DNA from: an uncultured Gammaproteobacteria bacterium
GTDB taxonomy: Bacteria; Patescibacteriota; Patescibacteriia; VMEV01; CAYQCH01
Length of the DNA: 64,000 bases
Direction: 5' to 3'
NCBI GenBank assembly: GCA_964352335.1
Contig: CAYGRO010000001.1
Coordinates: 125,942 to 189,941 of the forward strand
Shown: positions 1 through 57,934 of the stretch, in pieces
Layout: each line of letters starts with the position of its first letter
Position numbering within the stretch: position 1 is the stretch's first letter
Translations under genes and position numbers: made by a program
Notes under the pieces: generated by a model
Seen by the model: only the letters and a program-made list of their open reading frames with translations
Told to the model about the DNA's origin: nothing
Databases searched by the model: none

Positions 1-466
1 CCCGGTGCCAGATGGCGTAAGATCCCTTCTTGGGGTCGCGCTCGGACGTGACCACGAGGTCATCATCCATGAACTTCCACGACGGGAAGAGCTCGGCGCC
101 CCTCTTGTAGAGCCTCTCGGCCGTCATGTCGCCGGCCATGACGAGCAGCCGCCCCAGACCGACGCGCGTCTCGGGGATGCGGAGGTCGGAGAAGCTCAGC
201 TCGAGTCCGTAGATCTCGAGGTAGAAAGACTCCCACCAGCGGAGCTGGTCGCGGACATCGTCCTCACAGACCGTCATCTTGCGGGCGTCCCGCGAAACGA
301 TGAGGTCGGCGATCCGCTCGAGGATGTCCTTCCCATCCGGCGTTGCCAGACGGTGGATGTCCTCGTCGGTTCCCCCCTTCATCCGCACAGTCTCGACGAG
401 GCTAGTGATGATGCCGGTGGCGAGCCCCATCCCACTAACGATTGACGACACGTTCTTCTTGGCCAT
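1..466 (-). CDS. hypothetical protein, 5' part only (ORF runs off the window start); high-GC cassette
   Basis: ATG at 466 on the minus strand gives an open frame (MAKKNVSSIVSGMGLATG...) with no stop before position 1. GC is about 60% against a 35% background. The listed + strand ORF 5..445 is its antisense shadow. Confidence 0.4.
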   Translation of the reverse strand, partial: MAKKNVSSIVSGMGLATGIITSLVETVRMKGGTDEDIHRLATPDGKDILERIADLIVSRDARKMTVCEDDVRDQLRWWESFYLEIYGLELSFSDLRIPETRVGLGRLLVMAGDMTAERLYKRGAELFPSWKFMDDDLVVTSERDPKKGSYAIWHR

Positions 467-970
467 TGGTATGGCTCTCCTTCTCTTTTGGCTCGTCCCT
501 CATCTCCACACACCATGCGCGGAGACCCCAGACGAGCCTCGTTCAATGACAGATTTTAACGCAAAATATGCGCTAAAATCTGCCATTGAGTGATTGTAAA
601 GAACAACGAAATAATATAACACGAATTGGACAAAAAAGCAAGCACAGGCCTATTTTTTTCTAATTAAAAAAAATGCATTTGGGCTCCGGGCATTCACCCC
701 TTTTCAGCCAGAGGCTGATCCGCCTTTGGAGGAAATTCCCCTCTGCCCTCCGCCCAAAAAGAAAAATTTTGTTTTGCTTCATTTGAAGAAAAGCTATTAA
801 ATGCAAAAAGGAATGATAAAAAATGTACGTCGTACAACAGCGCCTAAGCGACAAGCCTTTGCTCCGATGATCCGAATAGCCTATCATCTACGCAAAGGCG
901 CGTCGCCTAGGCGCGAACGTTGTCGGTCATTAATTTGTTTTTTCTCTAAATAAAGCTTTTAATTTGTAGT

Positions 971-1447
971 GTGAATAATAACTATCTCAAATTTCGAAAG
1001 GTCTGGTTCTTATTAGTCCCCATCCAAGTGGTATCAATTGTGTCCCTCTTCATCATCACAACTGCTTATGGGTACTGGGATTTCAAGAGTTCAGGGCTTT
1101 TATTTGGATACCCGCTCTCGATTAGCATTCTATTTGTACCGATTTACGAAGAAATCATCTTCAGAGGATTCATTCTTGAGTGGCTCACAAAACAGATGAG
1201 AAAGAATAGTGCCATTATCATTTCCTCTCTCCTTTTCGGACTGTGGCACCTAAAAAACATATTCTTCCTCACTACTGGTGAGTTGATCTATCAAATGCTC
1301 TACACAGCCCTGATTTTCGGACCAATCGTAGCGGTTGTGACCCTAAGAACTAGAACCATCTGGATAGCGGTCATTATTCACTACCTCCACAACATTCTGT
1401 CTGCAGCATCCTGGGATATCCTAGCAATGCTGAACAAATTAACTTGA
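971..1447 (+). CDS. CPBP family intramembrane metalloprotease (CAAX protease/Abi-like)
   Basis: Motifs EExxxR (YEEIIFRG), FxxxH (FGLWH) and HxxxN (HYLHN) within a multi-TM protein. Confidence 0.75.
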   Translation: MNNNYLKFRKVWFLLVPIQVVSIVSLFIITTAYGYWDFKSSGLLFGYPLSISILFVPIYEEIIFRGFILEWLTKQMRKNSAIIISSLLFGLWHLKNIFFLTTGELIYQMLYTALIFGPIVAVVTLRTRTIWIAVIIHYLHNILSAASWDILAMLNKLT

Positions 1448-1574
1448 TGGGAAAAAACAAATTCACGAACCGACAACAGCGGTCTATTCGACATATCACC
1501 ATGGTCAAAAACCATACCATGTCGATTCATCGCATAGACCGCAAACGTTAGCTGAAATTTCACCCCTCCTCACT

Positions 1575-2222
1575 ATGATAGATAAACAAACATTTGAATT
1601 AGTAAACAAGTTGTGGGATTACCACCACGTTAATCAATTTCTTGAAAAATCTGATTGCATTTTAGTTCTGGGTAGTCATGATTTGAGGGTCGCCGAAAGA
1701 GGCGCAGAATTATATCTTCAAGGATTGGCACCTATTATAATTTTTTCTGGTGGCCTTGGAAATTTTACAAAAGAAATTTGGGATGAAGCTGAGGCTGACA
1801 AGTTCGCAACTATTGCTATGAATATGGGAGTTCCGCGTGATGCAATTTTGATCGAAAATAAATCAACGAACACTGGCGAAAATATTTTATTTACGCAACA
1901 GTTGCTAAAAGAAAAAGATCTTGATCCGCAAAGTTTTATCGTTGTGCAAAAACCATATATGGAAAGAAGGAGTTATGCGACATTTAAAAAGCATTGGCCT
2001 GACAAAAAACTTGCAGTAACATCGCCCCAAATTTCTTTTGAAAAATACCCAAACGATGAAATTCCGCTTGAGAAGGTGATAAATATCATGGTCGGCGACT
2101 TACAAAGGATTAAAATCTACCCAGAAAAAGGGTATCAAATTTTTCAAGAGATACCAGAGAATGTGTGGTCAGCGTACGAAAAACTTGTCGACCTTGGCTA
2201 TACTGATCACTTGGTTAAATAA
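1575..2222 (+). CDS. YdcF/DUF218 (ElyC/SanA-like) family protein
   Basis: Typical DUF218 core (ILVLGSHD ... IIFSGG ... TNTGENI). Confidence 0.65.
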   Translation: MIDKQTFELVNKLWDYHHVNQFLEKSDCILVLGSHDLRVAERGAELYLQGLAPIIIFSGGLGNFTKEIWDEAEADKFATIAMNMGVPRDAILIENKSTNTGENILFTQQLLKEKDLDPQSFIVVQKPYMERRSYATFKKHWPDKKLAVTSPQISFEKYPNDEIPLEKVINIMVGDLQRIKIYPEKGYQIFQEIPENVWSAYEKLVDLGYTDHLVK

Positions 2223-2459
2223 ACAGGAGGAGTGAAACATCATATAACACTGGCTATGCGGTTCAGCTTCGCTTCACCCATATTTGCTTCGGAAACATCA
2301 CACACGCAAACGTTATATGAAATAGCTTTTTGTCTTCTGGGCTTCGCCCAGTTTTTTAAATGGAAAGAATTTGATTTATTAAATTAGGGATGTTCAGGTG
2401 TCACTTGCTCATTTTATGATAAAATCGTTGGCACAGTTGTAAAGAACAACTAAAAACTT

Positions 2460-4877: not shown

Positions 4878-4906
4878 TTGCGAATCCCTTTTGTGATTGC
4901 TATTAT
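4878..4906 (+). promoter_or_regulatory. sigma70-like promoter, TTGCGA-17-TATTAT
   Basis: -35 at 4878-4883, 17-nt spacer, -10 at 4901-4906. No CDS lies downstream. Confidence 0.45.
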
Positions 4907-4913
4907 ATTTTTC

Positions 4914-5360
4914 AGGACTAAGTGACCCTGGACACTCCTGACATACTTAGCTTCTACCTAAGTTGATTCCAGTAACATAACATGGAGTATCGTGAAGCTG
5001 AACTTCCAAATTGGTAGCATGAAAAGCTACCACACCACGACGTTCGCAATCAGCACCCACTGAACCGCCAAGTCCCAAGGAAAGGAGGTGCCGTTGAAGA
5101 GCTCGATCTTTGACAGTTACTGACTCCCTCACTTGAAGCGCATACATGCGCTTCCACCGAAGCAGCCTAAAAAGGCTGGAAAGGAGGAAAATCATACCTT
5201 ACACTACAGAAGGCAGTTGCTCATCAACGAGTAGCACTATCTTCGGCTAGCGAAGGCCGCACAACCTAACGGCCGACCTGACAACAGCAGTACAAATCTC
5301 GCTGTATACTCGTCGGCCGTAACACAAAAGAGACATCTGATAAGATGTCTCTTTTGTTTG
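4914..5360 (+). ncRNA. unclassified structured non-coding RNA, about 440 nt
   Basis: Promoter upstream and a rho-independent terminator at the end. About 50% GC in a 35% GC genome. Several perfect hairpins, for example gaagcgcat-ac-atgcgcttc and ggtagc-atgaaaa-gctacc. No convincing ORF. Confidence 0.45.
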
Positions 5361-5374: not shown

Positions 5375-7372
5375 TTATTGGTTTTGAATAACAGGGTCTA
5401 AAATAATTGAACCATAATGCATGGTAACAAAAACTTTGTATTTCCCACTTGAATCTGGTTTAAAGTAAAAACCTAATCCAAGGCTATTCCAATCTTCGTG
5501 GTAAATTGTTCGATAATGATCACCATTTGTTGCAGCTTCAGAAAGAAAGAATGCTAAGGTATCATCTAATACTTTTTTTACAGATTCTGTTGAACCATCT
5601 GCGATCCCCCATGCAATATTTTCTGTAAAGTAATTATCATTCCACCCACCTTCACTATGACGAACTGTCCATTGTAAACCTTTTGTTTCAATCCATTGGT
5701 GCATGCTTTTTCCATCTGGGCGAGTATGCGTTGCAGAATTAATAGAACCCATATATCCAGCCCATTCAGAAGCAGTATTTACCCAACGTTGTTCTAATGT
5801 TAATTCACGTAAATCTTTTTCTGCTCGTAGGTTATTTATTTTTCCTGCCCAATATTCATTTAAAGCAATCAAATCTACTCCTTGTGGAATCGTACCTGCT
5901 TGATAAGGACTTTCTTGTACACCAGAAGTTACAAGCCCTTGTACATTTAATACAATTTCATTGCTATAAATATCACAAGCATCTCCAGTATAACGACAAA
6001 CTCTAAAATAATATTTACCTGCAGGCATATTTACTTTTCTAAACTCAAAAGCATTTGGGTCTGCGATATAGATAGAAGAATTTTCTGGATACGTTGGTAA
6101 TTGATCAATTGAATAAACAATTTTATATCCTAAAGAAGAATCTAAGCTTGTTTTTTGCCAACTCAACTTTACAACATCATTTTCTAATACGCCTGATAAT
6201 TGAATAGATCCACCAGGAAGAACCGAAGAACCATCGTTTTCAGAAATAAATATTTTTATATCATTACTATAAACACCACATGTTTTTCCTGTATATTGGC
6301 AAATACGGAAATGGTACTCTCGCCCATCACTTGCTACTTTAAATGCCATTTTTCTTATTTTTTCATCGTCTACAAAAATGGCAGTATCCTCAGAAAGTGT
6401 TGGATTCACTTTTGTACCATAAACTATTTTAAATCCTCGTGAAACATTTGTTTGGTTTACTGACCAGGAAAGATGAACAGTATTATCAATCAATTGACCA
6501 CTTAAACCAATGCTTCCAAAAACTTCTAATTCATCATCTTCTGGGATTTCATTTTTTACATCAGGAATTTCTTCTCCTCGTTTTTCGGCAAGAAAAACAT
6601 CAAAACTTTCAAAAGAAATTTCTTCTAAATCCTTATTAGAAATACCTAAACTAAGCTCTCGCATAATGCGATATGCTTCTGCCCCATCTTTTAGATAATG
6701 AACTGATAAATCTGTTGGATTAATATAATACGCTTCTCCATGAAGCTCTACAGCTAAAACAATTTTTCCTTTTACTTGTGTTGCTAATGTTTTATCTCCA
6801 GCTAGTAATCGATTAATATCTGCTGTAGAAGCACCTAAACCAAATTCACGCATCATTTGATAAGCAGTCGCTCCATCTTTCATATAAAAACGACGTCCAT
6901 CATCTGGATGCACATACCATGCTTCCCCATGATTTTCTACTTGGAGCAAAATATAACCACGAAGCTTTCTTGAAAGCTCAGTGTCTTTCACTTCATTTGA
7001 TGAAGTTGTTTCTTTGGCTTGCGTTGTTTCAATTTTCACAGCATCACCCTTTTCACCTGTAAATTGACGACCAGTAACCGTAATAAATGTATTCCAAACA
7101 TATCCTTTTCTTCCATCTTTCATTAATACAAGGTACCAACCATCTGCTTCTCCAATAATATCGACGGTAAGTCCTGCAGAAATACTTCCAACTGTGGAAC
7201 TATCCATACAAGTCATATCTCGCATATTAACGGTTGAGTTAACGGAACCAGTCCATTTAACGGTTGTAACAGGTTCTGTACAACTTCCTGCTTGTGCTTG
7301 AATAACCAAGCTTGCTGAGAGCAATAAAGTGCTCATCAAAGCGATACTCAGTCCTAAAATGCGCTTATTCAT
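5375..7372 (-). CDS. secreted multidomain protein: signal peptide, SH3b-like, two ~50-aa repeats, two FN3-like repeats, C-terminal CAP/SCP (YkwD-like) domain
   Basis: Signal peptide MNKRILGLSIALMSTLLLSASLVIQAQA. Internal repeated modules. C-terminal CAP motifs HTRPDG and ENIAWG. Confidence 0.6.
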   Translation of the reverse strand: MNKRILGLSIALMSTLLLSASLVIQAQAGSCTEPVTTVKWTGSVNSTVNMRDMTCMDSSTVGSISAGLTVDIIGEADGWYLVLMKDGRKGYVWNTFITVTGRQFTGEKGDAVKIETTQAKETTSSNEVKDTELSRKLRGYILLQVENHGEAWYVHPDDGRRFYMKDGATAYQMMREFGLGASTADINRLLAGDKTLATQVKGKIVLAVELHGEAYYINPTDLSVHYLKDGAEAYRIMRELSLGISNKDLEEISFESFDVFLAEKRGEEIPDVKNEIPEDDELEVFGSIGLSGQLIDNTVHLSWSVNQTNVSRGFKIVYGTKVNPTLSEDTAIFVDDEKIRKMAFKVASDGREYHFRICQYTGKTCGVYSNDIKIFISENDGSSVLPGGSIQLSGVLENDVVKLSWQKTSLDSSLGYKIVYSIDQLPTYPENSSIYIADPNAFEFRKVNMPAGKYYFRVCRYTGDACDIYSNEIVLNVQGLVTSGVQESPYQAGTIPQGVDLIALNEYWAGKINNLRAEKDLRELTLEQRWVNTASEWAGYMGSINSATHTRPDGKSMHQWIETKGLQWTVRHSEGGWNDNYFTENIAWGIADGSTESVKKVLDDTLAFFLSEAATNGDHYRTIYHEDWNSLGLGFYFKPDSSGKYKVFVTMHYGSIILDPVIQNQ

Positions 7373-7485: not shown

Positions 7486-7568
7486 ACTTGATTGTTTTTT
7501 CATCTTAGCGATAAATCTTTGTATTTATCTTTATGATGAAAATGACCACAGAAAGGGTCTAATAATTA

Positions 7569-7960
7569 TGTGCAAAATCCTTTGCGTCGATGACGACAAG
7601 GTAATGCTCCTCCTTATCGAGGAGTTCCTCGAGTGCAAATTTCCATCAGTAACGGTGGTTACCCATCAGTCCCCGCTCGAGGCAATCTCACAAGTCAAGA
7701 ATGACGAGAACATCAGTCTTGTCATCACTGACTGCGACATGGGCGAAGTGTCCGGCTTCGATGTCATCGAGGCCTGTATCGCGAAAGGCCTCCCCTCTGC
7801 CATCATGGTGAGTGGAGACGACACCAACCTAAAAACGGCGCTGTTCAAATTCAAAGACAAAATCCACTTCCAGACGCTCAACAAGCCAGCAAGCTTGCGA
7901 GAGCTGGAAGTGACCATCCGACACTCATTGGAACAACCAGAAAGGAAGTCTTGCTTATGA
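7569..7960 (+). CDS. single-domain response regulator (CheY-like receiver); high-GC cassette
   Basis: Acidic pocket CVDDD, phospho-acceptor Asp in ITDCDM, Ser in MVSGDD, conserved Lys-Pro (LNKPAS). GC is about 52%. Confidence 0.6.
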
Positions 7961-8352
7961 GCATCATCATCTACGTAGAAGACGAGGAAGAGTTCAGCGA
8001 CAGACTATTCCCACTCCTACAAAACCACTTCTCCGAGCATGAAGTCCTGCACTTCTACTGTGGAGGGCAAGCCATCTCTGCTCTTCGACAGAGAAGGGAT
8101 ACCGTCTCACTTCTCATCACCGATATCGCACTTGGTGTTAAGATCGACGGTCTTCAAGTGGCGCGTGCTGCGATGGAGCTTGGTATCAAACGGATCTTCA
8201 TCCTCTCAAGACAGGCCGAAGATCCGCTGAACAACCTCTACATCGACAGATTTGCCCAAAAGTTCGGGTCCACATTCAGGCTCAAGAACAAGCCAGAAGA
8301 CCTAGCAACAACCATCCCACTTATCAAGGAGCTGCTCAATGCAGATATCTAA
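7957..8352 (+). CDS. second single-domain response regulator (receiver)
   Basis: ATGA overlap with the upstream gene. Motifs YVEDEEE, LLITDIAL, ILSRQ and Lys-Pro (KNKPED). Confidence 0.6.
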   Translation: MSIIIYVEDEEEFSDRLFPLLQNHFSEHEVLHFYCGGQAISALRQRRDTVSLLITDIALGVKIDGLQVARAAMELGIKRIFILSRQAEDPLNNLYIDRFAQKFGSTFRLKNKPEDLATTIPLIKELLNADI

Positions 8353-8377
8353 GAGGTGGAGGTGGAACCACACAACC

Positions 8378-8432
8378 CCGCTCCCGCTCGCCGAGTCGCA
8401 AGACATGGCTAGAGCGGGCGGGGTTGTATTCA
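8378..8432 (+). terminator. GC-rich hairpin terminator
   Basis: caaccccgctcccgctc ... gagcgggcggggttg, followed by a T-rich tail. Confidence 0.5.
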
Positions 8433-8501
8433 TTTATTGACCAAGTAAAAGCTTCATGCTATTTATTAAACAAATGTCACGATAAAAGTATTAAATAAGC
8501 A

Positions 8502-9155
8502 TTGAATATTTTTATTGGCAAAGCAGTCCAAGGAGGACTGTTTTGTATTACCAAACAACAAAACAAGAAAGAGAGCATTTACGTGCTCGAGAATACTCCC
8601 GTGCCGTCTCGTGTCTCGGTCATCACCGACTATACGAGTGGAATGGCTATTGGCAACCGGTTCAAGATCTTGATGGGACATATCCTTTCTGGTGTTGACC
8701 CGAAAGTCTTTTCTCGGGCCGAAGAAGCTCGACAGTGGATCTCTACCAATCGACACCAACCCCCATTCCTCTACAACATCATGTGGCCCATACTAGACCA
8801 CTTCAACTCCCCTGAAGAACTGGGAGAAGAAATCCGTCGTGTCGGGTGGCTCGTCTGGGGCCTTGAACCCTTTGTCCTCAAGGGGATCAGTCACATCCTC
8901 ATCTACGGCATTCCTGGCCGAGCGGAGATCAAAGCTTCTTTGATGAAGATGCAATTCCCCAAAGACGAGGAAACCAAGCGCTTCAGCCTGCAGGTCGAAG
9001 CTGAGCTTGAGCAACATCGACCGTTGGGTGAACCACGTCAACCACCTGTCACCGACTACATCGAGATGGGGAAAAAGGGAGACGCCGTGGACCGTCTCTG
9101 CTTGCTCTGGGGCAACTGCCAAGACGTCGCCAACCGAACCCGAATCCGCTCTTGA
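8502..9155 (+). CDS. hypothetical protein partnered with the two receivers; start uncertain, GTG at 8583 is an alternative
   Basis: Long ORF in the same high-GC block. No family recognised. Confidence 0.4.
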   Translation: MNIFIGKAVQGGLFCITKQQNKKESIYVLENTPVPSRVSVITDYTSGMAIGNRFKILMGHILSGVDPKVFSRAEEARQWISTNRHQPPFLYNIMWPILDHFNSPEELGEEIRRVGWLVWGLEPFVLKGISHILIYGIPGRAEIKASLMKMQFPKDEETKRFSLQVEAELEQHRPLGEPRQPPVTDYIEMGKKGDAVDRLCLLWGNCQDVANRTRIRS

Positions 9156-9202
9156 CAACCCAGATATTCTGTCCTATGCTAGGTACAGGATAGGAGGAAT
9201 CC

Positions 9203-9310
9203 ATGAACGAAATCGAAAAGGCCTTCGCGGCCGCCCTCGACGCCAAGATCAACTCGATCTCGGCGAAGAAGACCGAGCCTTCCGAGGCTCACACCACGTC
9301 CGCGGCCTAG
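9203..9310 (+). CDS. small ORF, 35 aa (MNEIEKAFAAALDAKINSISAKKTEPSEAHTTSAA)
   Basis: Strong SD GGAGGA 6 nt upstream of ATG. Below the ORF-track length cutoff. Inside the high-GC block. Confidence 0.35.
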   Translation: MNEIEKAFAAALDAKINSISAKKTEPSEAHTTSAA

Positions 9311-9539
9311 CACCATGCTGGGCCACAACAATTCGTCGCAACCGCCTTGAGGTGGAACCAGTCATCGCTCTCCCGAGCAACCGACCAGTTCCACCTCTTC
9401 GCCTTTATAGGGACTTTTTCAAGTCTTTTTTTAATACAAAAAAACACCCATCTCTAGGTGCCAACCATCTTAGCAAAAGCCTACTCTCCTACTTTCCTAC
9501 TAGCTTTTAGCAAAGTAGCTAGTAAGAGGGTAGCGACAA

Positions 9540-10508
9540 TTAAACAGTCTCCGGAAACAACATATCAATAATCTTGCTCGCCACATCTCGAGACTTACCA
9601 ATGGTTGGTTCATGATGAATGGTTAAACCTGGATCAGATTCTAATTCAGTAATAAAGCCAGGTCGCCTTGAAATATCTGTAGAAAAAAAATCTACTCCAA
9701 TAATGTCAGCATCAAAATACTTCGCAATTTTTTTAGCCATTTGTTTTACTTCTTTGCAAAGTGAATCAGTTATATCAATAGAAATACCTCCACGATGAGA
9801 ATTTGAAAGCATTCCCAATGCAATTCTTTGGCCACGAGTTGGGATATCGGTTAATTTCATTCCTTGCTTTTTGAGTAATGCCTTACTTTCATCTGTCATT
9901 TTAATTTTTCTATTAGCAACTGGAACTATTTTATTCCATGAAAGGAGCAAATCATTAATAGAAGATTTTCCATCACCAAGAAGATGAGCTGGTACGCGCT
10001 TTACCGCAAAAACAAATTTTTTATTCACCACAAGAATACGATGATCTTCTCCTTTTAATTGTTTTTGAGCTAAAACTGTTTTTTTATATCTTCGACTACA
10101 ACTTAAAGATTTTTCTATTGCTTTTTTAAACTGAGATGGCTTTGTAATATTTACCGTAACACCTTTTCCACCATAGGAGTCCGTTGGTTTAATTACAATC
10201 TGTTTATGCTTATGTAAAAATGCTGTTAATTCTTTTTTTGAATCTGTTAAAAGACAAACGGGCGATGGCAAAGCTAGATCTTGTAAAATTTGAGCCGTTA
10301 AATATTTATCATTAAAAATATCACCGCTTACATACCCCGTTTTATTAGTACCAGCGCGCTTAATAAATTCACGATGTTTTTTGTATTCCAAAATTGCATA
10401 GCTTTCATATTTTTTCCCAAACCCTTTTACAGAAATACCTCGAGAACGAGCTTCATCTACAAGATATTGTGTATAGATACTGAATTTGTGTTCTACTGTT
10501 TTTTTCAT
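9540..10508 (-). CDS. RimK-like ATP-grasp ligase (CphA N-domain-like)
   Basis: Motifs IVIKPTDSYGGKGV and DIIGVDFF, and a C-terminal PTIGKSRDVASKIIDMLFP motif like other RimK-type grasp enzymes. Confidence 0.7.
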   Translation of the reverse strand: MKKTVEHKFSIYTQYLVDEARSRGISVKGFGKKYESYAILEYKKHREFIKRAGTNKTGYVSGDIFNDKYLTAQILQDLALPSPVCLLTDSKKELTAFLHKHKQIVIKPTDSYGGKGVTVNITKPSQFKKAIEKSLSCSRRYKKTVLAQKQLKGEDHRILVVNKKFVFAVKRVPAHLLGDGKSSINDLLLSWNKIVPVANRKIKMTDESKALLKKQGMKLTDIPTRGQRIALGMLSNSHRGGISIDITDSLCKEVKQMAKKIAKYFDADIIGVDFFSTDISRRPGFITELESDPGLTIHHEPTIGKSRDVASKIIDMLFPETV

Positions 10509-10550
10509 ATTGATTCATTGTAAAGAGCATCTCCCGTTCTACAGGATCTT

Positions 10551-11408
10551 CTATACAGTTTCTAAGATTAAAGAACGTTTTTTAATTAAGTGATCAATAA
10601 TAGCACCAGCAATATCTTTTCCTGTTACCATAGAGCATCTCGGAAAAAAACACGGGAAATTTGTTTCTGCAACATACCCTTTTCCACGGTGGATAAGAAT
10701 ATCAACACCGCCAAAATCATAGTCCATTGCATCAACTGCTTTAACAGCTAATTGTTCAATGGCTTTTGAAAACTTTTTCTTTTGAACAAGTGGAGTTGCT
10801 CCAACATTTGAACGAAAATCTCCTTTAGGGGCTCTATATTCAATACTATCGATAACTTTTCCACCTAAAACGATTAAACGAGCAGAACGTCCCCCTGGAA
10901 TAAATTCTCGCATAATCACTCTTTCTGATTTTCCTTTGAAATAATCTGCCAATGAATTTAAAGCAGACAATGAATCTACTTTCATTACCCCTACTCCATG
11001 GCTTCCACCTGTCACCTTGATAATAAGTGGGAATCCCCCCAAGGCAACGGAAGCTTTTTTTAAATCCTCTGGTGTTCTTGGTAATGCATCAATTGTTTTT
11101 GGCTGACGAACTTGCTTTAATCGGTATCTATTAAATGAGTCATAGCTTATAAGTACTCTTTCTAAATTTTTGTGCAATGTAATTGGTTCTTGATGAGATA
11201 AAAAACTTTGAACAATAGCGCTTCGTTTACCAACACTAGATTTATACAATAAATCTCCCTTTTTTACTTTCAAAGGATTGGTAAATGAAAACTCATCAGG
11301 GTTGATTTCAATATAATCAATAGATCGCTCTGCACAAGCGGTGGCAAAGCGAATATTGATATCTGCATTTTTTTCTCGAGTGATATTTATGAATCGTATT
11401 TTTTTCAT
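10551..11408 (-). CDS. RimK family alpha-L-glutamate ligase-like ATP-grasp enzyme
   Basis: Motifs PLIIKVTGGSHGVGVMKV, GGVDIL and GKDIAGAIIDHL. Confidence 0.75.
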   Translation of the reverse strand: MKKIRFINITREKNADINIRFATACAERSIDYIEINPDEFSFTNPLKVKKGDLLYKSSVGKRSAIVQSFLSHQEPITLHKNLERVLISYDSFNRYRLKQVRQPKTIDALPRTPEDLKKASVALGGFPLIIKVTGGSHGVGVMKVDSLSALNSLADYFKGKSERVIMREFIPGGRSARLIVLGGKVIDSIEYRAPKGDFRSNVGATPLVQKKKFSKAIEQLAVKAVDAMDYDFGGVDILIHRGKGYVAETNFPCFFPRCSMVTGKDIAGAIIDHLIKKRSLILETV

Positions 11409-12346
11409 AGATATTTTTCAATATGATCGACAAATTTCACAAGAATTTTTTTCACTTCTTTTTCATGACCAGGTGTCATCTCTAAAGTTGGATTATGATT
11501 CATTTCAATAAGCTTTGGTGTTTTACGATTCAAAAACAACATATCTACTGAATACATTGTATTTTGAAAAGGCTTTAATCGTTTTGTTACTTCTTGTACA
11601 AGTTTTTTAGCTTGAGGAGGTAAATCAGAAAGAGCAATAAAAATTCGTGTACCACCCTGAGCAATATTACAAAGCTCTTTACCTTTAGCAGGAGTACGAA
11701 TATATGCTTGAATAGGTTTATGATCAAGACAAATAACTCGTAAATCATGAATCCCTTTAAATAAGCTAGGGATTCCTTGTTTACTATCTAAAAATGGTTG
11801 CATAATCGCTGGAAACTTTCCTTTGTACTGAGCAACTTTTTTTGAGGAAGAAATTTCTACTCCATTTCCACAAATACCACGAAGGTATTTCGTAACCCAT
11901 TTTCGTGTAGTTTTATGCTTTTTAGCAATTGCAGATAATTCTTCTTTATTATGCGCCAAATAAGATGGAATCGTTATTTCAGGAAACATTAAATGGGTCA
12001 TGAACTTATCTTCTGCAATCATTTGTACTCGTGGAGGATTTAAAGAGGGAGCCATTTCTTGCATCATATTTTTTATTGGCATCCGCTTATCTGAGCAGGC
12101 TGAACGATCTAAAATATAATCCGGCTTGAGATTTTTATTCTTTTCAACAAAGTTCTTACCGTCCCAAATATAATAAGAGGCAAATCCTTTTTCTGATAAT
12201 TCTTGAATATTGGTCCATACTACTTTTATTCCTCGCTCTTTTGCGATTTCATATAACCACAAATATGGCTGAATAATTTTCTCTGCCAAAATTCCATATT
12301 CCCTATTTTTCAGTTTATATCCGAAACAAATAGCAACTATTTTCAT
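11405..12346 (-). CDS. divergent ATP-grasp ligase
   Basis: 4-nt overlap with the downstream gene. ATP-grasp C-terminal motifs CNIAQGG, VDMLF and IEMNHNP. Confidence 0.55.
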   Translation of the reverse strand: MKIVAICFGYKLKNREYGILAEKIIQPYLWLYEIAKERGIKVVWTNIQELSEKGFASYYIWDGKNFVEKNKNLKPDYILDRSACSDKRMPIKNMMQEMAPSLNPPRVQMIAEDKFMTHLMFPEITIPSYLAHNKEELSAIAKKHKTTRKWVTKYLRGICGNGVEISSSKKVAQYKGKFPAIMQPFLDSKQGIPSLFKGIHDLRVICLDHKPIQAYIRTPAKGKELCNIAQGGTRIFIALSDLPPQAKKLVQEVTKRLKPFQNTMYSVDMLFLNRKTPKLIEMNHNPTLEMTPGHEKEVKKILVKFVDHIEKYL

Positions 12347-12513
12347 AAAAAGTAACTTTAATCATAAAAAAACAACATGGGTGCAATGACCAGTTGTTTC
12401 GCTGTTCAAGACTATTACAACATATATTTACCAAAAAAGCAAGTTATTTTGCAATTTTCCCTATTTTGACTATACTAATGCATTCCCAACCACCACCAAG
12501 AACGAGGTAGAAT

Positions 12514-13543: not shown

Positions 13544-13598
13544 AAGAACTCGAATCTACGAATTAAGACCAATGTACAAATTGATCCCTGACAAATGA

Positions 13599-14873: not shown

Positions 14874-14888
14874 AACATTTATCTATTT

Positions 14889-15743: not shown

Positions 15744-15844
15744 AGCAGTTCATAAATTACGCTCATTCTACTCCTCCCCTATTAATTGAGCAAATTGTCT
15801 ATCTATGATAGATTTTTAATACTGATTTTACTTAAACGAGCATT

Positions 15845-16309: not shown

Positions 16310-16359
16310 GTAGAGCCTCCATATCTTGGAAAAAGAATCGTGCTAAATGTACGATTCTT

Positions 16360-17724: not shown

Positions 17725-17725
17725 A

Positions 17726-51509: not shown

Positions 51510-51782
51510 CTAATTACTCTTTCTTGTTAATTGATAAATTTTCATTAATTCGTCAACCGCTTTTTTTGTTTTCCCTTCTATCATTTGGCGTTTCACACAA
51601 GAATTCAAATGACCTTCAAGCAATTTTGCATCCACTTGTTTTAACGCATTTTGCGCAGCCAGTGACTGCGTTAATACATCGGGGCAATAATTATCACTTT
51701 CCACAGCATCAATAAGTCCTTGAATTTGACCTTTGATAATTTTTAAACGATGTAAGGCACTTTTTTTCGTTTCAGCGAGCAT
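51510..51782 (-). CDS. csoR: CsoR/RcnR family metal-sensing repressor
   Basis: C-H-C ligands (YCPDV ... H ... C). Confidence 0.8.
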   Translation of the reverse strand: MLAETKKSALHRLKIIKGQIQGLIDAVESDNYCPDVLTQSLAAQNALKQVDAKLLEGHLNSCVKRQMIEGKTKKAVDELMKIYQLTRKSN

Positions 51783-52119
51783 AGTGTTTTAAATGAATAC
51801 TTAATGAAATCCATACTATTTTAATACCCTAGGGGGGTATTACAAGAATATCCCATCTTTCTTTCAATGTCTAGTAAAAAACTCTCTTCTTTTTTAAAAA
51901 GTGCAATTTATATCCACATTTCATTGTCTCTCCCCCTACCAAGTGGGCCCTGACTGTCGGCAAGTAGGGATGTCTGACAGACAAAGGGGGTATAACCATT
52001 TACAAATAAAAAAGCCTCTCCATTTGGAGGGCTTTTTCTTAATTTATTTCGAACCAGACAATATTCCAGGTTATCTGTAAAGTTCCGTACTCCGCTAAGC
52101 TTTGATAAAATACTTAGGC

Positions 52120-52659
52120 TTAACCTTGCAATTCATTGTCCTTAAAAATTCGACTTCCTACTGTTTTCACTTGCCCCTGGTATTTACCTCGGTAAGGATG
52201 CTCTGCCTTTTTATCCATTTTACAAAAGACTAATTGGCAAACGCGTCGTCCAGCTTCTAAGCGAATAGGAAGTGAATTTGCATTGTAAAGTTCTAAGGTA
52301 ATTCGTCCTTCAAAACCAGCATCTACCCAACCAGCATTTTCGATGAAGAGACCAAGACGACCAATAGAGCTTCGGCCTTCTACGAAAGCGGTTACATCAT
52401 CTGGAAGTTTAATATATTCCATAGTGGTAGCAAGTAGAAAGGAACGTGGTGGAATGGTAATAGAATCTGCTTCAAATTCTCTATACGTAATTTCAGAATC
52501 AAGCGAGATAATTTCCATCCCCTTATCTTCTACATCTAAAAAGTTGGTTCCGAGCCGACAGTCAATTGAACTACATTGGATAGAGTCAGGCACAAGAGGT
52601 TCGCAAACCAATTCTCCTTTTGCCATCATTTCTTTAAGCGTTCCATCAGATAAAATCAT
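52120..52659 (-). CDS. dcd: dCTP deaminase
   Basis: Conserved Dcd core. Bidirectional terminator at about 52001..52030. Confidence 0.85.
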   Translation of the reverse strand: MILSDGTLKEMMAKGELVCEPLVPDSIQCSSIDCRLGTNFLDVEDKGMEIISLDSEITYREFEADSITIPPRSFLLATTMEYIKLPDDVTAFVEGRSSIGRLGLFIENAGWVDAGFEGRITLELYNANSLPIRLEAGRRVCQLVFCKMDKKAEHPYRGKYQGQVKTVGSRIFKDNELQG

Positions 52660-52736
52660 ATGATCTAGCAGGTTTAATACAATAGGTACTAGGATAGTAC
52701 CGAAAAAGATTTAATTCAGCAAATAATTTTTTCCTT

Positions 52737-53666
52737 ATGAAACAATATTTAGACCTTTTGCAACATATTACTGATCATGGAGTTCAAAAAGATGACCGTA
52801 CTAATACCGGAACAAAAAGTATCTTCGGTTATCAAATGCGATTTGACCTAGCAAATGGCTTTCCACTTGTAACAACAAAAAAAACTTACCTAAAAGCAAT
52901 CATTCATGAATTATTATGGTTCTTACAAGGAGCTACAAATATTCAATACCTTGTAAAAAACAATGTTCGTATTTGGAATGAATGGTCTTACCAAATTTAT
53001 TTAGAAGAAAATAACTTAGAAGAAAAATACCCTCGGTATTCAGAAGAATGGACAGCTCACTTAGCTGAATTTGTCGAAAATATTAAAACCGATGATGAAT
53101 TTGCAAAAAAATGGGGTGAACTTGGTCCTATTTATGGAAAACAATGGACACGATGGGAAGGACCAAATGGTGTAGAGATCAATCAAATCCAAAACTGCAT
53201 CGATATGATTAAAAACAAACCAACTTCACGAAGAATTATGGTAAGTGGTTGGAATGTTGGTGAAATTCAAGAGCTTATCAAAAGTGATCATCATGCCCCC
53301 CCACCATGTCATAGTCTTTTCCAATTTATGGTCATTAATGGAAAACTTTCTTGCCAACTTTACCAAAGAAGTGCCGATGTTTTCTTAGGTGTTCCTTTTA
53401 ATATTGCTTCATACGCATTACTCACAATGATGATGGCTCAAGTAACAGGACTAGAACCAGGAGAATTTGTACATACTTTTGGAGATGTTCATATTTACAA
53501 TAATCATGTTGACCAGGTAAAAGAACAACTTTCTCGAGAACCAAGACCATTGCCAACTATGAAATTAAACCCTGAGGTAAAAGATATTTTTGCTTTCAAA
53601 TACGAAGACTTTACCTTAGAAGGATACGACCCTCATCCACCTATTAAAGCGCCTATCGCTGTATAA
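52737..53666 (+). CDS. thyA: thymidylate synthase
   Basis: PPCHSLFQF active-site Cys region. Confidence 0.9.
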
Positions 53667-53669
53667 CTT

Positions 53670-54188
53670 ATGACTAGACCCACTGTTATTCTTGTCATGG
53701 CCATGTCTGCCGACGGTTTCATTACCAAACATCAAGGCGGACTTGTCGACTGGACAAGCAAAGAAGATAAAAAACATTTTCGAACCATTACCAAAGAAGT
53801 CGGCGCTGTTATTTATGGAAAAAAAACATTCGACACTTTTCCTGGCCCATTACCCGACAGATTAAACCTTATCATGACGAGAACCCCAGAAGGATTAGAG
53901 CAAGAAGAAGGTATTTTAGAGTTTACCAATGCCGAGCCTTTAGCCATTCTAAAAGATTTAGCCAAACGAGAATTTGAACAAGTTGTTTTAGGTGGTGGTT
54001 CTCAAATTAATAAACTCTTTTTAGAACAAAACTTAGTAGATGAAATCTATCTAACGATTGAGCCTAAATTATTTGGCTCAGGTCACCCACTTTTGTCTGA
54101 AGCTATAATTGATTTAGATTTAGAATTAATTCATCTTACAAATTTAACGGCTGATAGCATTCTTCTTCACTACAAAGTAAAAAAATAA
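53670..54188 (+). CDS. dihydrofolate reductase family protein
   Basis: ILVMAMSADGFI ... YGKKTF. Confidence 0.7.
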   Translation: MTRPTVILVMAMSADGFITKHQGGLVDWTSKEDKKHFRTITKEVGAVIYGKKTFDTFPGPLPDRLNLIMTRTPEGLEQEEGILEFTNAEPLAILKDLAKREFEQVVLGGGSQINKLFLEQNLVDEIYLTIEPKLFGSGHPLLSEAIIDLDLELIHLTNLTADSILLHYKVKK

Positions 54189-54189
54189 C

Positions 54190-54630
54190 ATGGAAAAACC
54201 ATTCTCACTATACGTTGCTGGACCACTTACCCATCTCAAAGACCCTGAGATTAAAAATTTGTATATCAAAATTGGGATGATGGCAACTGAGCTTGGAATA
54301 AACGCTATTGTTCCTCATGTAGATATTGAACAAAATGCAGATATGGTAACTCCACAATTTATTTACCATGCAGACAGCAAGGCGGTAAGAGAAGCTGATA
54401 TGATGGTAGCCTATGTGGGAGAAACATCATTGGGAGTGGGGATGGAATTAGAAGTTGCCAATCAAAATAATACGCTCTTCGTTTTAATCAGTGAAAAAGG
54501 GACCCATATTTCTCGTATGGTCTTGGGAAGTCCAAACCTGATTAAACATATTGAATTTGATTCCCCTCAACATGCTTTAGATCAATTAAAAGAAGTCTTT
54601 ACCATGTGTCTTAATTCATTACGTAAATAA
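54190..54630 (+). CDS. nucleoside 2-deoxyribosyltransferase-like protein (paralog 1)
   Basis: YVAGPL ... EADMMVAY ... GVGMELEVA. Confidence 0.6.
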   Translation: MEKPFSLYVAGPLTHLKDPEIKNLYIKIGMMATELGINAIVPHVDIEQNADMVTPQFIYHADSKAVREADMMVAYVGETSLGVGMELEVANQNNTLFVLISEKGTHISRMVLGSPNLIKHIEFDSPQHALDQLKEVFTMCLNSLRK

Positions 54631-54673
54631 ATACATGGTATATGGGCCATCGGACACGTAGTATTTAACAATA

Positions 54674-55123
54674 TTGTCCCATGCACCATATACCATGCCT
54701 CATATCCATATGAATAAAATCGCCTATATCGCAGGAGCTATTACGCATCTTGCTGACGAAGAATATCTAAATTGGTATGAAGCTATTGGAAAAGCTTTGG
54801 AAGAGCATGGGTATGAAGCCTTCATTCCTCATCGTGATATTCATGTTCCTAAACATGCTGATCCACAAGAGATCCATCCTAGAAACCATGAAGCCGCTAA
54901 ACAAGCGGATATTATCATCGCTTATGTGGGTCGCCCATCACTCGGTGTAGGGATGACACTTGAACTCGCATTCAACGAAGGAATTCGAACTATTTTACTC
55001 TCTGAACAAGATGCTACGATTTCCGAAATGGTTCTCTCTTTACCAAATGTCATTGAACATATTCGATTTAATAATAAAGACGTTGCTATAGATGAATTAG
55101 TAGAATTTGTCGCCCAGCTTTAA
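54674..55123 (+). CDS. nucleoside 2-deoxyribosyltransferase-like protein (paralog 2)
   Basis: YIAGAI ... QADIIIAY ... GVGMTLELA. Confidence 0.6.
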   Translation: MSHAPYTMPHIHMNKIAYIAGAITHLADEEYLNWYEAIGKALEEHGYEAFIPHRDIHVPKHADPQEIHPRNHEAAKQADIIIAYVGRPSLGVGMTLELAFNEGIRTILLSEQDATISEMVLSLPNVIEHIRFNNKDVAIDELVEFVAQL

Positions 55124-56282
55124 CCTCAGATTTATGAGAACGCATGAAGAAATGATCAAAGAATTTGACCAAAATCTTGCTCCCTATGCAATAAAAAATG
55201 CAGGAGAACATGGACGAGTTTACCTAGAACAACACCATAGCGCCAAGCTTCCTTTTCAAAGAGATCGTGATCGCATTATTCATTGCAAAGCTTTTCGTCG
55301 TTTAAAACATAAAACACAAGTACTGGTTAGCCCAAAAGATGACCATGTTCGAGATAGACTAACCCATAGTATTGAAGGCGCTCAAATTGTGCGTGGGCTT
55401 TGTCGGTCTTTACGCTTGAATGAAGACCTGGCAGAAGCGGCTATTTTAGCTCATGATCTTGGCCACCCACCATTTGGACATGAAGGAGAATATGCTTTAC
55501 ACGAAATGATGCAAGAATTTAATTTAGCATTTGATCATAATGAACATAGTTATAGAATAGTAACTGAATTAGAACAAAGTTATCCAGATTTCCCTGGACT
55601 AAATTTAACCCAAGAAACTCGCGCCGCTATTCAAAAACATCATGTCCCTTGGGAAATGAAATCTGCGACAACGCCACATCAAGCAAGCCTAGAAGCACAA
55701 CTTGTAAACCTTGCTGACGAAATCGCTTATTACTCACATGATATTGACGATGGATTACGTTCAACTATTTTAAAAATTGATGATCTCTTGCAATTAGAAA
55801 TAGGGCAACTTGCTTTAGAAGTTATTCGTAATCGATACACAAAATTAGAAAAAGATTCTCCATTTTTTCAAGCACAATTAGTGCGATCTGTTTTACATTT
55901 ACTTTCGAAAGATATTACAGAAAACACCTCTTCTCGCATTACAGCTCTAAATATACAAACCGTAGATGATATTTACACTTTAGATAAACCAGTTGCGAAC
56001 TATAGCCCTGCCATTGAAGAGGCCACATTAGAACTAAGAAAATACCTCTATAAAAACTTCTACCACTCTCAAGAAGTAAGTAAGTTCACACATGAAGGCA
56101 AACAACTATTAAAAGAACTCTTTGCTCGTCTCTATGAAGAACCAAGACACTTACCAGAAGATCAACAAAAATTAATTGACAATACTGTGTCAAAAGCTAT
56201 TGTGATAAAAGACTATATCGCAGGAATGACCGACAACTTCGCAATAGACTTAGTTAAGTCCTTAAGAAACAAGCTCATCTAG
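55107..56282 (+). CDS. dgt: dGTP triphosphohydrolase-like HD phosphohydrolase
   Basis: RDRIIHCKAFRRL ... HDLGHPPFGH. Confidence 0.8.
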   Translation: MSPSFNLRFMRTHEEMIKEFDQNLAPYAIKNAGEHGRVYLEQHHSAKLPFQRDRDRIIHCKAFRRLKHKTQVLVSPKDDHVRDRLTHSIEGAQIVRGLCRSLRLNEDLAEAAILAHDLGHPPFGHEGEYALHEMMQEFNLAFDHNEHSYRIVTELEQSYPDFPGLNLTQETRAAIQKHHVPWEMKSATTPHQASLEAQLVNLADEIAYYSHDIDDGLRSTILKIDDLLQLEIGQLALEVIRNRYTKLEKDSPFFQAQLVRSVLHLLSKDITENTSSRITALNIQTVDDIYTLDKPVANYSPAIEEATLELRKYLYKNFYHSQEVSKFTHEGKQLLKELFARLYEEPRHLPEDQQKLIDNTVSKAIVIKDYIAGMTDNFAIDLVKSLRNKLI

Positions 56283-56290
56283 GAGAGTGT

Positions 56291-56400
56291 GATGCGAATT
56301 TACGAATGCATTCGAATCTGCAAATAGGCTACGAATTAATCGCTAACCAATTTGAAGAATATTCGTAGATTAGTATAAATTCGTATATTCGCATCATACC
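56291..56400. promoter_or_regulatory. array of TTCGTA/TACGAA half-sites including a 14-bp perfect palindrome TCGAATGCATTCGA; candidate operator upstream of tmk
   Basis: Five or more half-sites within 110 bp. Outer IR gatgcgaat / attcgcatc. Confidence 0.4.
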
Positions 56401-56439
56401 ACCGTGATAAACACCCTTAACTTGTTAACGCTCAATTCT

Positions 56440-57168
56440 ATGGCTGGAAAATTAATTGTAATCGACGGAACTGATGGAAGTGGAAAAACCACTCAATTTA
56501 ATATGCTTTTAGATCGATTACATGAAGAAAATATCGACACGCAAACAAAAGACTTCCCTCAATACGGCAAAAAATCAGCCGGCCCTGTGGAAGAATACTT
56601 AAATGGAGCATACGGCGACTCTCAATCTGTTGGACCATACCGAGGCTCTATCCTTTTTGCCGTTGACCGATACGATGCAAGTTTTGAAATGAAAAAATGG
56701 TTAAGCGAAGATAAATTTGTTCTCTGTAATCGGTATGTCACTGCCAATATGATGCATCAAGGAGGAAAGATTAAAGACGCAAAAGAACGAACGAACTATT
56801 TTGAATGGTTAAAAAATTTGGAATACAATGTTTTTGAAATCCCTGAACCAGATATTAATCTTTTCTTACATGTTCCCCCAGCTATCGCGACGAAACTTGT
56901 AGAAAAAAAAGGGCATCGAGATTATATCGGCGGTGAAGGCAAAGATATGCACGAAGCAGACATGGAACATCAAAAAGATACAGAAAAAACGTTACTAGAA
57001 CTTGCTGAAACCATGCCTAATACCTTTTTAATTAAATGTGCACCAGAAGGAGAAATGTTAAGCCCGGAAGAAATTCATGCATTGATTTGGGAAGTTGTTG
57101 CAAAAGAAATTGGTAAGCCAATAAGCAGCCCATCAAAAGCCAAAGCAAAAGGCAAACTTGTTTTTTAA
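56440..57168 (+). CDS. tmk: thymidylate kinase
   Basis: P-loop IVIDGTDGSGKTTQ, DRY motif. Confidence 0.75.
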   Translation: MAGKLIVIDGTDGSGKTTQFNMLLDRLHEENIDTQTKDFPQYGKKSAGPVEEYLNGAYGDSQSVGPYRGSILFAVDRYDASFEMKKWLSEDKFVLCNRYVTANMMHQGGKIKDAKERTNYFEWLKNLEYNVFEIPEPDINLFLHVPPAIATKLVEKKGHRDYIGGEGKDMHEADMEHQKDTEKTLLELAETMPNTFLIKCAPEGEMLSPEEIHALIWEVVAKEIGKPISSPSKAKAKGKLVF

Positions 57169-57223
57169 CAAAAAAGATATTTTTCGAGCCCCTACTCCAT
57201 GAGAGAAGTAGGGGCTCGTTTTG

Positions 57224-57934
57224 TTACTGCCGAAGCAGAAACTCAACCACGCATAGCGACGACGAAGCCGTTAGCATGATAAAAAAGTTGTCAGCAGGGG
57301 TAAGATGCCCTGCAAATGGTCCGCTGCGAATTGTCCATTGCTTGGTTTTCAACTCTACAATGGAGCAGAGGATACCAGAGACAAGTAAGAGAGGCCAAAG
57401 CTTCATCTTATAGCAAAGCGCTGCTACGAGAAAAGCTGTTCCAGCACAGGTGAACGTTCCTTCAACCGACTTTCGGGAGTTACGCCACCTCGTTTTCACC
57501 TTGCTCGCTTGTCCAACAAAAGCAGCGGCTGGATCGCACCATGCTGTGACGAGCAAAGCAACGGTCACGACAAATTGTGGAAAGAGGGTCACACAAATAG
57601 CGCATCCCACGAGAAAATCCACCATAGTGGTTCGACCACCAGCAGTTTCATGTTCTCGCTCCAGACTCCTCACCAATGGAATCGTTACTCGTTTTCTGAG
57701 CCACTCATACCCAAAAGAGAGTAAGAGTGCCGACCAGATGATGAGGACCTTTACCTCCCAGCTTTCCAAATACCAGTTTAGGGCAGCGACCCCGCTTATC
57801 GATCCGGCATGCCAGATCTTACGCAAAATCTCTACTTCCTGGCAGAAATCAAAAAAGCGAGTGCGGGACTTCCCCAGCAGTCGCAAGACAAACTCGGGCA
57901 TGAACACACTCCTTTCGTGGTATAACTCTATCAA
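57224..57934 (-). CDS. polytopic membrane protein, CTP-transferase/dolichol-kinase-like (PF01148-like); moderately high GC
   Basis: VEGTFTCAGTAF C-terminal motif. GC about 48%. Confidence 0.4.
   Translation of the reverse strand: MIELYHERSVFMPEFVLRLLGKSRTRFFDFCQEVEILRKIWHAGSISGVAALNWYLESWEVKVLIIWSALLLSFGYEWLRKRVTIPLVRSLEREHETAGGRTTMVDFLVGCAICVTLFPQFVVTVALLVTAWCDPAAAFVGQASKVKTRWRNSRKSVEGTFTCAGTAFLVAALCYKMKLWPLLLVSGILCSIVELKTKQWTIRSGPFAGHLTPADNFFIMLTASSSLCVVEFLLRQ

Follow-up and report, generated by a model that had tools for sequence, protein, structure and literature searches.

The 64,000-nt stretch analyzed here (contig CAYGRO010000001.1 of assembly GCA_964352335.1, positions 125,942 to 189,941, forward strand; hereafter the window) is AT-rich and is interrupted by a mosaic of short GC-rich blocks. 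We give slightly better than even chances to the view that this mosaic is genuine biology, made of GC-rich, structured, self-contained units that have kept their composition over long times and are themselves gained and lost. For three of the protein families concerned, named c1, c2c-c2d and c7 after their window members (Table 1), comparison with relatives shows that the GC excess is a long-lived family trait and not the mark of a recent import. The sequences of the housekeeping genes for ArgRS, ProRS, GatB and SmpB, together with the transfer-messenger RNA (tmRNA), identify the host as a Paceibacteria-type Patescibacterium.

A GC profile in 400-nt sliding windows and a segmentation with a two-state hidden Markov model (HMM) recovered all nine high-GC blocks that an earlier note on this DNA had listed, and added four further segments. 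The HMM assigns 8,407 nt (13% of the window) to a high-GC state with 52.8% GC and 55,593 nt to a low-GC state with 35.7% GC; the smaller GC peaks are tRNAs, the tmRNA and palindromes that resemble repetitive extragenic palindromic (REP) sequences. In the 13 open reading frames (ORFs) of the blocks, the GC content of third codon positions (GC3) is 0.51-0.89, compared with 0.258 +/- 0.057 in 58 background ORFs (z = 4.5 to 11), and the GC content of first and second positions (GC1, GC2) and the amino-acid composition are only mildly shifted. Both C and G are raised at the third positions of the GC-rich genes, with CTC replacing TTA; the codon shift is thus a general GC shift, and translational selection was rejected as its source. 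ORFs that exceed their local median GC3 by 0.2 make up 13 of 70 in the window and 16 of 1,144 in 69 ArgRS-centred loci of other Patescibacteria. Two genes of annotated families have intermediate GC3, namely an Rce1-like CPBP protease gene (971-1447; 0.52) and an ABC-2 permease gene (41757-42524; 0.46), so that the GC-rich class may grade into ordinary genes.

The blocks are self-contained transcription units, in which a σ70-like promoter and a Shine-Dalgarno site precede a GC-rich body that is followed by a hairpin terminator, likewise GC-rich. They are of two kinds: small accessory protein genes, and units without an ORF that fold like structured RNAs. The earlier note had described them as single-gene cassettes, each with its own promoter and terminator. 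Such signals are indeed visible for nearly all units, but "single-gene cassettes" does not describe a heterogeneous set of protein genes, ORF-less promoter-terminator units, tRNA and tmRNA genes and REP-like palindromes, and the block at 7560-9400 contains four genes. Ten of the 12 spacers measured in and around the blocks have 26-37% GC, like ordinary intergenic DNA (the other two, 46-47%); since most spacers are AT-rich, the GC excess is tied to the coding sequences and the terminator hairpins. The terminators are related in places. The sequence GTCTTCATTT has three copies in the window, with about 0.24 expected, all of them in the terminator tails of c3, c4 and c7. Those of c6a and c6b (30955-31000 and 31383-31428), previously called identical, have GCCCACGACGGAGT ... 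TCGTGGGCTTCGTTGTTTATTGG in common and share 14 + 23 identical nt but differ in their loops, and the two proteins are unrelated. The GTCTTCATTT tails and the c6a/c6b near-duplicates give a loose signal of the shared origin that had been proposed from the terminators. The proteins are unrelated to each other with one exception: an all-against-all BLASTP search linked only c2a and c2b, and a paralogous cassette family was rejected.

The junctions between GC-rich and AT-rich DNA that other contigs cover are authentic. An assembly or binning chimera, in which an AT-rich contig had taken up reads of a GC-rich organism, would fit the abrupt GC steps and the position of the first block at the end of a Logan contig, and had been raised as an alternative in the earlier note. 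Logan contigs, which come from an independent assembler (runs ERR3534985 and ERR3534997), are however 100% identical to the window over 1-2934, 7604-9888, 9862-19099, 37658-38992 and 51517-63997, and a contig of the second run, ERR3534997, is 100% identical over 12098-13084. In these contigs (L001, L082, L113, L114 from the second run, L115 and L116), c3, c7 and c9 are covered across either junction (c9 within L001), whereas c1 and the c2 block are covered across the right-hand one; the two c3 junctions are reproduced in two sequencing runs. Intact promoters, Shine-Dalgarno sites, start and stop codons and terminators mark the block edges, and an unrelated sample (contig L112) carries the c2c-c2d module with the same architecture at the same locus. 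Chimerism is thus refuted for c2c-d, c3, c7 and c9, and we consider it extremely improbable as an explanation of the mosaic.

Members of the c1, c2c-c2d and c7 families lie well above their hosts in GC and GC3 in genomes of 30%-59% GC. For the c1 family, the gene exceeds its flanks in GC by 3-20 points wherever more than 1 kb of flank is available (15 of 15 non-redundant loci; 18 listed), in hosts ranging from 0.30 to 0.59 GC. Its GC3 averages 0.675, compared with 0.48 in neighbouring ORFs, and is the higher of the two in 13 of 13 loci (Wilcoxon p = 0.0002; regression slope 0.58). The gene order HisPhos-X-IleRS, in which X is the c1-family gene, is kept in L084, L092, L104, L106 and L099; between L084 and L092, IleRS is 43.5% identical and X 57%. 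The c7 family is GC-richer than its host in three of three loci, with homologs about 10 GC points above it (60% vs 50% in L087, 54% vs 45% in L091).

A comparison at the same locus is offered by L112, a second syntenic relative from an unrelated sequencing run, which was found via a cassette homolog. Here, c2c and c2d, including the leader hairpin and the terminator, are flanked by the same two genes, CAP-domain and RimK-like, that enclose them in the window. The c2c ortholog is 43% identical and has 56% GC and a GC3 of 0.68, against an L112 background of 41.7% GC and a GC3 of ~0.33; the c2d ortholog has the same ...TTSAA* end and a similar GAGGTGGA-stem hairpin terminator. The neighbouring genes are only 33-75% identical, so that the two genomes have diverged deeply and saturation is to be expected at synonymous sites. 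The earlier note had taken a sister genome with the same gene, site and GC excess as the sign of an ancient native feature; c2c-c2d provide this case, but c2a, c2b, c3 and the ORF-less unit at 4905-5325 do not, as they are absent from L112, which has only a 108-nt gap at the position of the last. These are the blocks that fall within the L112 regions compared. L112 in turn holds two GC-rich genes that are absent from the window. The absence of c2a, c2b and c3 indicates that accessory units turn over between relatives, and the finding that three families are GC-rich in every relative examined indicates that atypical composition here is not simply recent foreign DNA.

The closest large, species-level relative found, a 454-kb contig (L002/L087; ~49-50% GC), is syntenic with the window around ArgRS, with protein identities of 63-83%, and carries its own hypothetical genes with raised GC3. 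The slot upstream of ArgRS that holds c4 in the window is filled in L002 by a different, unrelated GC-rich ORF (GC3 0.76 vs a local median of 0.56), whose homology to c4 was rejected (E = 2.2). L002 also contains a reverse anomaly at 6001-6445, a patch of 29% GC with an ORF of GC3 0.26 in a relative of 49% GC.

A further property of the GC-rich genes is an excess of predicted mRNA structure, scored as the folding z of native coding sequences relative to synonymous-codon shuffles. The mean z of the window cassettes is -1.9 (negative in 12 of 12), compared with -0.36 for the window background genes. GC-rich-class genes of other genomes average -3.2 (negative in 17 of 17, with a minimum of -8) and their neighbours -0.87. 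In 24 GC-matched core genes from GC-rich Patescibacteria the mean is -0.67, from which both the window cassettes (p = 0.002) and the GC-rich genes of other genomes (p = 3e-6) differ. With shuffles confined to 25-codon windows, the mean is still -2.6. Since no conserved RNA motif was demonstrated in five c1 orthologs, this signal is statistical and does not correspond to a defined structure. Across three genomes, third positions of the class are nearly equal in composition (C ~0.36, G ~0.28) despite widely different backgrounds. The encoded proteins are real, with structure models reaching a predicted local distance difference test score (pLDDT) of 90 for c7 and 84.5 for the c1-family member P0012. 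Selection for mRNA secondary structure in coding regions was reportedly described by Katz and Burge in 2003; as in their system, synonymous shuffling lowers the folding stability of native coding sequences, but the effect seen here is 3-5 times that of core genes from the same or GC-matched genomes and concerns one compositional gene class.

A composition maintained in this way would call for a force on the transcript or the coding DNA that offsets the AT-biased mutation pressure of the genome. The likeliest such force would be selection for stable, highly structured mRNA; alternatively, GC-biased repair or conversion could act in hypervariable genes that recombine frequently. The units themselves would shift between intergenic slots as they are gained and lost within the phylum.

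The classical explanation of such a mosaic is horizontal acquisition, with recent and still unameliorated imports from GC-richer donors, mostly Patescibacteria of 50-60% GC, that would reach intergenic hotspots through transformation and through recombination of the illegitimate or homology-facilitated kind. It agrees with the foreign-like GC3 and the mildly shifted amino-acid composition, with the position of blocks beside tRNA-Asp, the tmRNA and a RAYT, with the common terminator style, and with the documented horizontal gene transfer (HGT) and genomic islands, mostly exchanged among Patescibacteria (PMC12455944). Several of our results also weigh against a long-maintained composition. The density of GC3 outliers is ~13 times that of the 69 loci from other Patescibacteria, as a lineage-specific burst of acquisition would produce, and the variable presence of c2a, c2b, c3 and the 4905-5325 unit between syntenic relatives fits lineage-specific acquisition as well. 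Cassette codon usage resembles that of core genes in a GC-rich Patescibacterium (r = 0.53) and is opposite to the host background; the c1 GC excess all but vanishes in hosts of the highest GC content, a pattern that a GC-rich donor pool would equally give; and the c7 homolog of L087 lies at a different, non-syntenic locus. Persistence is shown for only three of ~13 gene families, with c3, c4, c5, c6a, c6b and c8 being singletons for which no relatives are known. The mRNA folding scores come from predicted minimum free energies alone, the hairpin encoded by the HRLATPDG codons of c1 is present in only about half of the family members, and RNAalifold on five c1 orthologs returned a positive (unfavourable) covariation term and no net covariation support; we therefore do not claim a conserved RNA motif in these orthologs. 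For the orphan units and the high density of outliers in this genome, recent transfer from GC-richer relatives is a serious rival.

As an account of the whole mosaic, recent import nevertheless appears doubtful. It conflicts with c2c-c2d being GC-rich at the same site in L112, with the c1 family exceeding host GC at each of its loci, some of them syntenic between very divergent genomes, and with the host-like AT-richness of most internal and flanking spacers, which is unlike the GC3 of the genes. At 90% identity, seven of ten cassette proteins were found in the protein collection, all as singleton clusters, and three were absent from it; the best homologs are 34-65% identical. Neither an integrase nor a reverse transcriptase was found among the scanned window ORFs, and no attachment-site repeats accompany the GC-rich blocks, the only such repeat (61 nt of tRNA-Asp) bounding a separate low-GC segment. 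Integration at ssrA was rejected, as the tmRNA 3' end is not duplicated. A tblastn search with 12 concatenated cassette proteins gave no match among 50,697 phage and 72,556 plasmid records, and scans of IMG/VR for c1 (family profile), c7, c2c and c4 gave no relatives. What remains of the earlier suggestion of recently acquired cassettes is the gain and loss between relatives; as a general reading it is not supported, because c2c-c2d persist as GC-rich genes in L112 and the c1 and c7 families are GC-rich wherever found. GC-biased gene conversion or repair, by which hypervariable interaction-type genes that recombine much more often than core genes would be kept GC-rich without selection on RNA, is in our view improbable. 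The c1 family does join a conserved N-terminal module to swapped C-terminal domains, one of its members (in L097) has the repeat signature of a target of a diversity-generating retroelement (DGR), and the joint rise of G and C at third positions is not a translational-selection pattern; conversion does not, however, predict excess mRNA folding over synonymous shuffles. To our knowledge, the effects of GC-biased conversion reported so far in bacteria amount to a few GC3 points, not 30-60, which counts against it further.

Extending the view of long-maintained, structured units beyond the window, we tentatively propose, with somewhat less than even confidence, that Patescibacteria possess an accessory-gene class held near a GC3 set-point of ~0.6-0.8, with excess mRNA structure, whatever the composition of the host. 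The class would comprise DGR-type lectin-fold proteins, membrane-anchored HExxH proteins, small orphans and neighbouring structured non-coding RNAs, and its cause could be selection on the transcript (for stability or structure, in slow-growing ultra-small cells) or gene-specific biased repair. In the window and its relatives, at least three gene families stay 10-25 GC points above their hosts. Atypical base composition is routinely taken as a sign of recent transfer that later drifts to host composition; if the proposal is true, it would instead mark a functional class that composition-based HGT and island callers misread. If the pattern is general, island and HGT estimates for genomes of the candidate phyla radiation (CPR) would need revision, and gene-specific selection or biased repair would act on synonymous sites in organisms thought to be driven mainly by drift and AT-biased mutation. 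Surface, regulatory and orphan genes, along with unclassified structured RNAs, would then be candidates for roles in the episymbiotic lifestyle. Earlier work has documented HGT and islands in Patescibacteria (PMC12455944); for persistent atypical composition in orthologs combined with excess mRNA structure, a limited full-text literature search found no report.

The units share features with known mobile systems. Like the genomic islands of Patescibacteria, to which up to 13% of genome length has been attributed through HGT (PMC12455944), they are atypical in composition, contain accessory or hypothetical genes, vary between relatives and often lie near tRNA genes, and the high-GC state likewise covers 13% of the window. 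Unlike these islands, they are single genes at about ten scattered sites with no mobility genes found, and at least three families keep their atypical composition, which an island and amelioration model does not predict. Integron cassettes are similarly short and single-gene, each followed by an imperfect inverted repeat; the window units, however, have their own promoters and are scattered instead of arrayed, no integron integrase was found, and their hairpins carry U-rich tails like intrinsic terminators, unlike attC sites.

That most block proteins lack a recognisable family, as the earlier note stated, is true of Pfam, NCBIfam, PHROGs and PADLOC, in which no cassette protein other than c2a has a convincing match, but not in general, since c1, c2c and c7 have uncharacterised homolog families. 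The c1 family has a conserved N-terminal module with an invariant motif, GGTDEDIHRLATPDG, followed by variable C-terminal domains. The C-terminal sequence of the window member differs from the rest of the family, its 3' end lying beyond the window. In the structure model of P0012, the C-terminal domain has a C-type-lectin fold, with Foldseek probabilities of up to 0.99 to C-type lectin domains (E ~0.01). C-type-lectin DGR targets are common in CPR bacteria (PMC8144416, PMC11661182). In the c1-family member of L097 (same contig as L083), the gene ends in a 120-nt stretch that recurs 340 nt downstream with 87% identity (6468-6587 and 6929-7048), and the two copies differ only where the downstream one has an adenine. 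By its sequence pattern, this pair is the signature of a DGR, with a variable repeat (VR) in the gene and a template repeat (TR) downstream. The 350-aa gene beside it is annotated as Fic-like and not as a reverse transcriptase, and no TR was found near the c1-family genes of L084, L092 and L096. The c1 family resembles DGR variable proteins in the lectin domain of P0012 and in the VR/TR pair of L097. It differs in that the window shows neither a TR nor an RVT-family match among its scanned ORFs, with the c1 3' end off-window, and in that DGR mutagenesis, which covers ~100 nt, does not explain a gene-wide GC excess. The codons of the invariant HRLATPDG peptide form an 11-bp hairpin, which is perfect in L084 (8105-8150) and contains two G-U wobble pairs in the window c1 (~350-395, - strand).

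The c7 protein is, on the evidence of a conserved motif and a structure model, weakly assigned as a membrane-anchored HExxH metallopeptidase-like (gluzincin-like) protein. Its family comprises 72 clusters at 50% identity and has a common layout of an N-terminal membrane anchor, a Pro-rich linker and the HExxH domain. Of 24 members, at least 90% retain each of H161, E162 and H165, and the downstream E180 is invariant. The top PDB matches of the model are weak (MATCAP, the BlaR1 protease domain, selecase and YbeY; E of at least 0.018, TM-score ~0.26). The gene adjoins tRNA-Asp (37627-37702, - strand) at a distance of 200 nt. The 3' part of this tRNA is present as a perfect 61-nt direct repeat (32834-32894 and 37627-37687), which brackets a 4.7-kb low-GC segment (30-33%) with genes for a class II aminoacyl-tRNA synthetase-like paralog, an LD-carboxypeptidase, an AlaRS-like fragment, a methyltransferase and an HD protein. 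The segment looks like an integrated element without an integrase.

In the c2 block, c2a matches the receiver domain PF00072 with 44.7 bits (cutoff 30.2) and is preceded by a TTGACA-N17-TATATT promoter. The c2b protein is 27% identical to c2a over 116 aa and has only weak NCBIfam matches to VanR-type response regulators, no Pfam match at E up to 0.1, and a weak homolog in L002. A conserved hairpin (~8526-8550) lies in the leader of c2c, which has three homologs (P0098-P0100). The c3 protein forms a singleton cluster.

The ORF-less units were scored for folding by predicted minimum free energies relative to dinucleotide shuffles. Those at 660-960, 4905-5325, 20730-21095 and 25295-25800 are, from these predictions, candidates for novel structured RNAs; the tmRNA, for comparison, has z = -3.8, weaker than the ORF-less units at z of -5 to -7. 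The 4905-5325 unit has no Rfam or Pfam match. With Rfam gathering and E-value thresholds, only tRNAs and the tmRNA pass, and nothing in the ORF-less blocks reaches E < 0.5. The block at 25295-26245 lies directly downstream of the tmRNA (24822-25220), and the two units at 20730-21391 lie upstream of a tRNA pair (21392-21546). Klein, Misulovin and Eddy reportedly described, in 2002, GC-rich non-coding RNA islands in AT-rich genomes. The units at 4905-5325, 20730-21095 and 25295-25800 are similar in being GC-rich, bounded by a promoter and a terminator and folded beyond shuffles, and the tRNA and tmRNA genes of the window also give GC peaks; unlike these islands, most window blocks are protein-coding, with homolog families and confident structure models, and the ORF-less units all lack an Rfam match.

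Table 1. Coordinates of GC-rich units, HMM segments and repeat features in the window.
Feature	Position	Strand	Description
c1	2-466	-	N-terminal 155 codons; gene leaves the window at its left edge; GC 63%, GC3 0.88
c1 start	466		Shine-Dalgarno site and ATG at 466; leader/promoter to ~600
HMM high-GC segment	1-541		62.7% GC
ORF-less stretch	660-960		REP-like palindromes; folding z = -6.3 (+), -5.2 (-)
ORF-less GC-rich unit	4905-5325	+	hairpin terminator 5326-5360; folding z = -5.0
HMM segment beyond the nine blocks	5026-5319
c2a	7568-7960	+	single-domain response-regulator receiver protein; GC3 0.66
c2b	7957-8352	+	divergent receiver-like protein; hairpin terminator ~8377-8432
HMM high-GC segments	7584-8423; 8582-9403		52-55% GC
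c2c	8583-9155	+	190-aa protein, function unassigned; start revised to GTG 8583
c2d	9203-9310	+	35-aa ORF, GC3 0.89; own TTGACA promoter; terminator hairpin ~9339-9390
c3	12514-12963	+	149-aa orphan ORF, GC3 0.53; terminator tail GTCTTCATTT (12975)
HMM high-GC segment	12532-12977
AT-rich TTTTAGCTTTTCAGTTTTT repeat sites	13498-13538; 21674-21756; 60214-60260; 60638-60702
Two ORF-less promoter-terminator units	20730-21095; 21140-21391	+	TTGACA promoters; folding z = -5.7, -2.3
HMM segment beyond the nine blocks	20864-21662		tRNAs and ORF-less units
HMM high-GC segment	23502-23982
c4	23563-23967	-	134-aa orphan, GC3 0.67; terminator tail GTCTTCATTT at 23504-23495
Membrane ORF upstream of c4	24026-24169	-	47 aa
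HMM high-GC segment	25190-26236
ORF-less structured unit	25295-25800	+	precedes c5; folding z = -7.1
c5	25806-26168	+	120-aa orphan, GC3 0.78, followed by terminator; block to 26245
RAYT-like (IS200/Y1 transposase-like) ORF	26218-26925	-	Pfam Y1_Tnp 21.5 bits, below the cutoff of 23
HMM segment beyond the nine blocks	26381-26589		palindrome within the RAYT ORF
c6a	30626-30955	+	orphan; near-duplicate terminator
c6b	31068-31364	+	orphan; near-duplicate terminator
HMM high-GC segment	30658-31431
HMM segment beyond the nine blocks	32721-32915		tRNA-Asp fragment
c7	37910-38620 (unit to 38672)	+	236 aa; membrane anchor and HExxH...E domain; terminator tail GTCTTCATTT
HMM high-GC segment	37924-38665
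ORF-less GC-rich stretch	42600-42790		beside c8; folds weakly, z ~-2
HMM high-GC segment	42595-43075
c8	42883-43089	-	~65 aa, C-terminal membrane helix, GC3 0.81; promoter TTGACA-N17-TATAGT (consensus)
HMM high-GC segment	57185-57920
c9	57224-57934	-	polytopic membrane protein, GC3 0.53; likely start ATG 57901

The first tRNA of the pair downstream of the units at 20730-21391 is unusual. ARAGORN annotates it (21392-21464) as a tRNA-Phe with the anticodon AAA, the anticodon loop reads UCAAAAG, with a C at position 33, and its score with the Rfam tRNA model is 54 bits. It is co-transcribed with tRNA-Ile behind a 250-nt GC-rich leader and may be an odd tRNA or a tRNA-like element. Beside c8, at 43175-43501, a small lipoprotein-like ORF contains a Pacifastin protease-inhibitor domain (PF05375; 33 bits, cutoff 27.9), which is typical of arthropods.

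Palindromic repeats are found elsewhere in the window as well. Within the RAYT-like ORF, a GC-rich stretch of ~200 nt is inserted in frame and holds a perfect 28+28-nt (56-nt) palindrome at 26497-26552. Further REP-like GC-rich palindromes lie at 19070-19160 and 29027-29103, and copies of CCCCCTAACCCCCTCC...GGAGGGGG are found at 45941 and 63232. A further repeat family is AT-rich and consists of TTTTAGCTTTTCAGTTTTT and its complement; it builds long imperfect palindromes at the ends of several genes.

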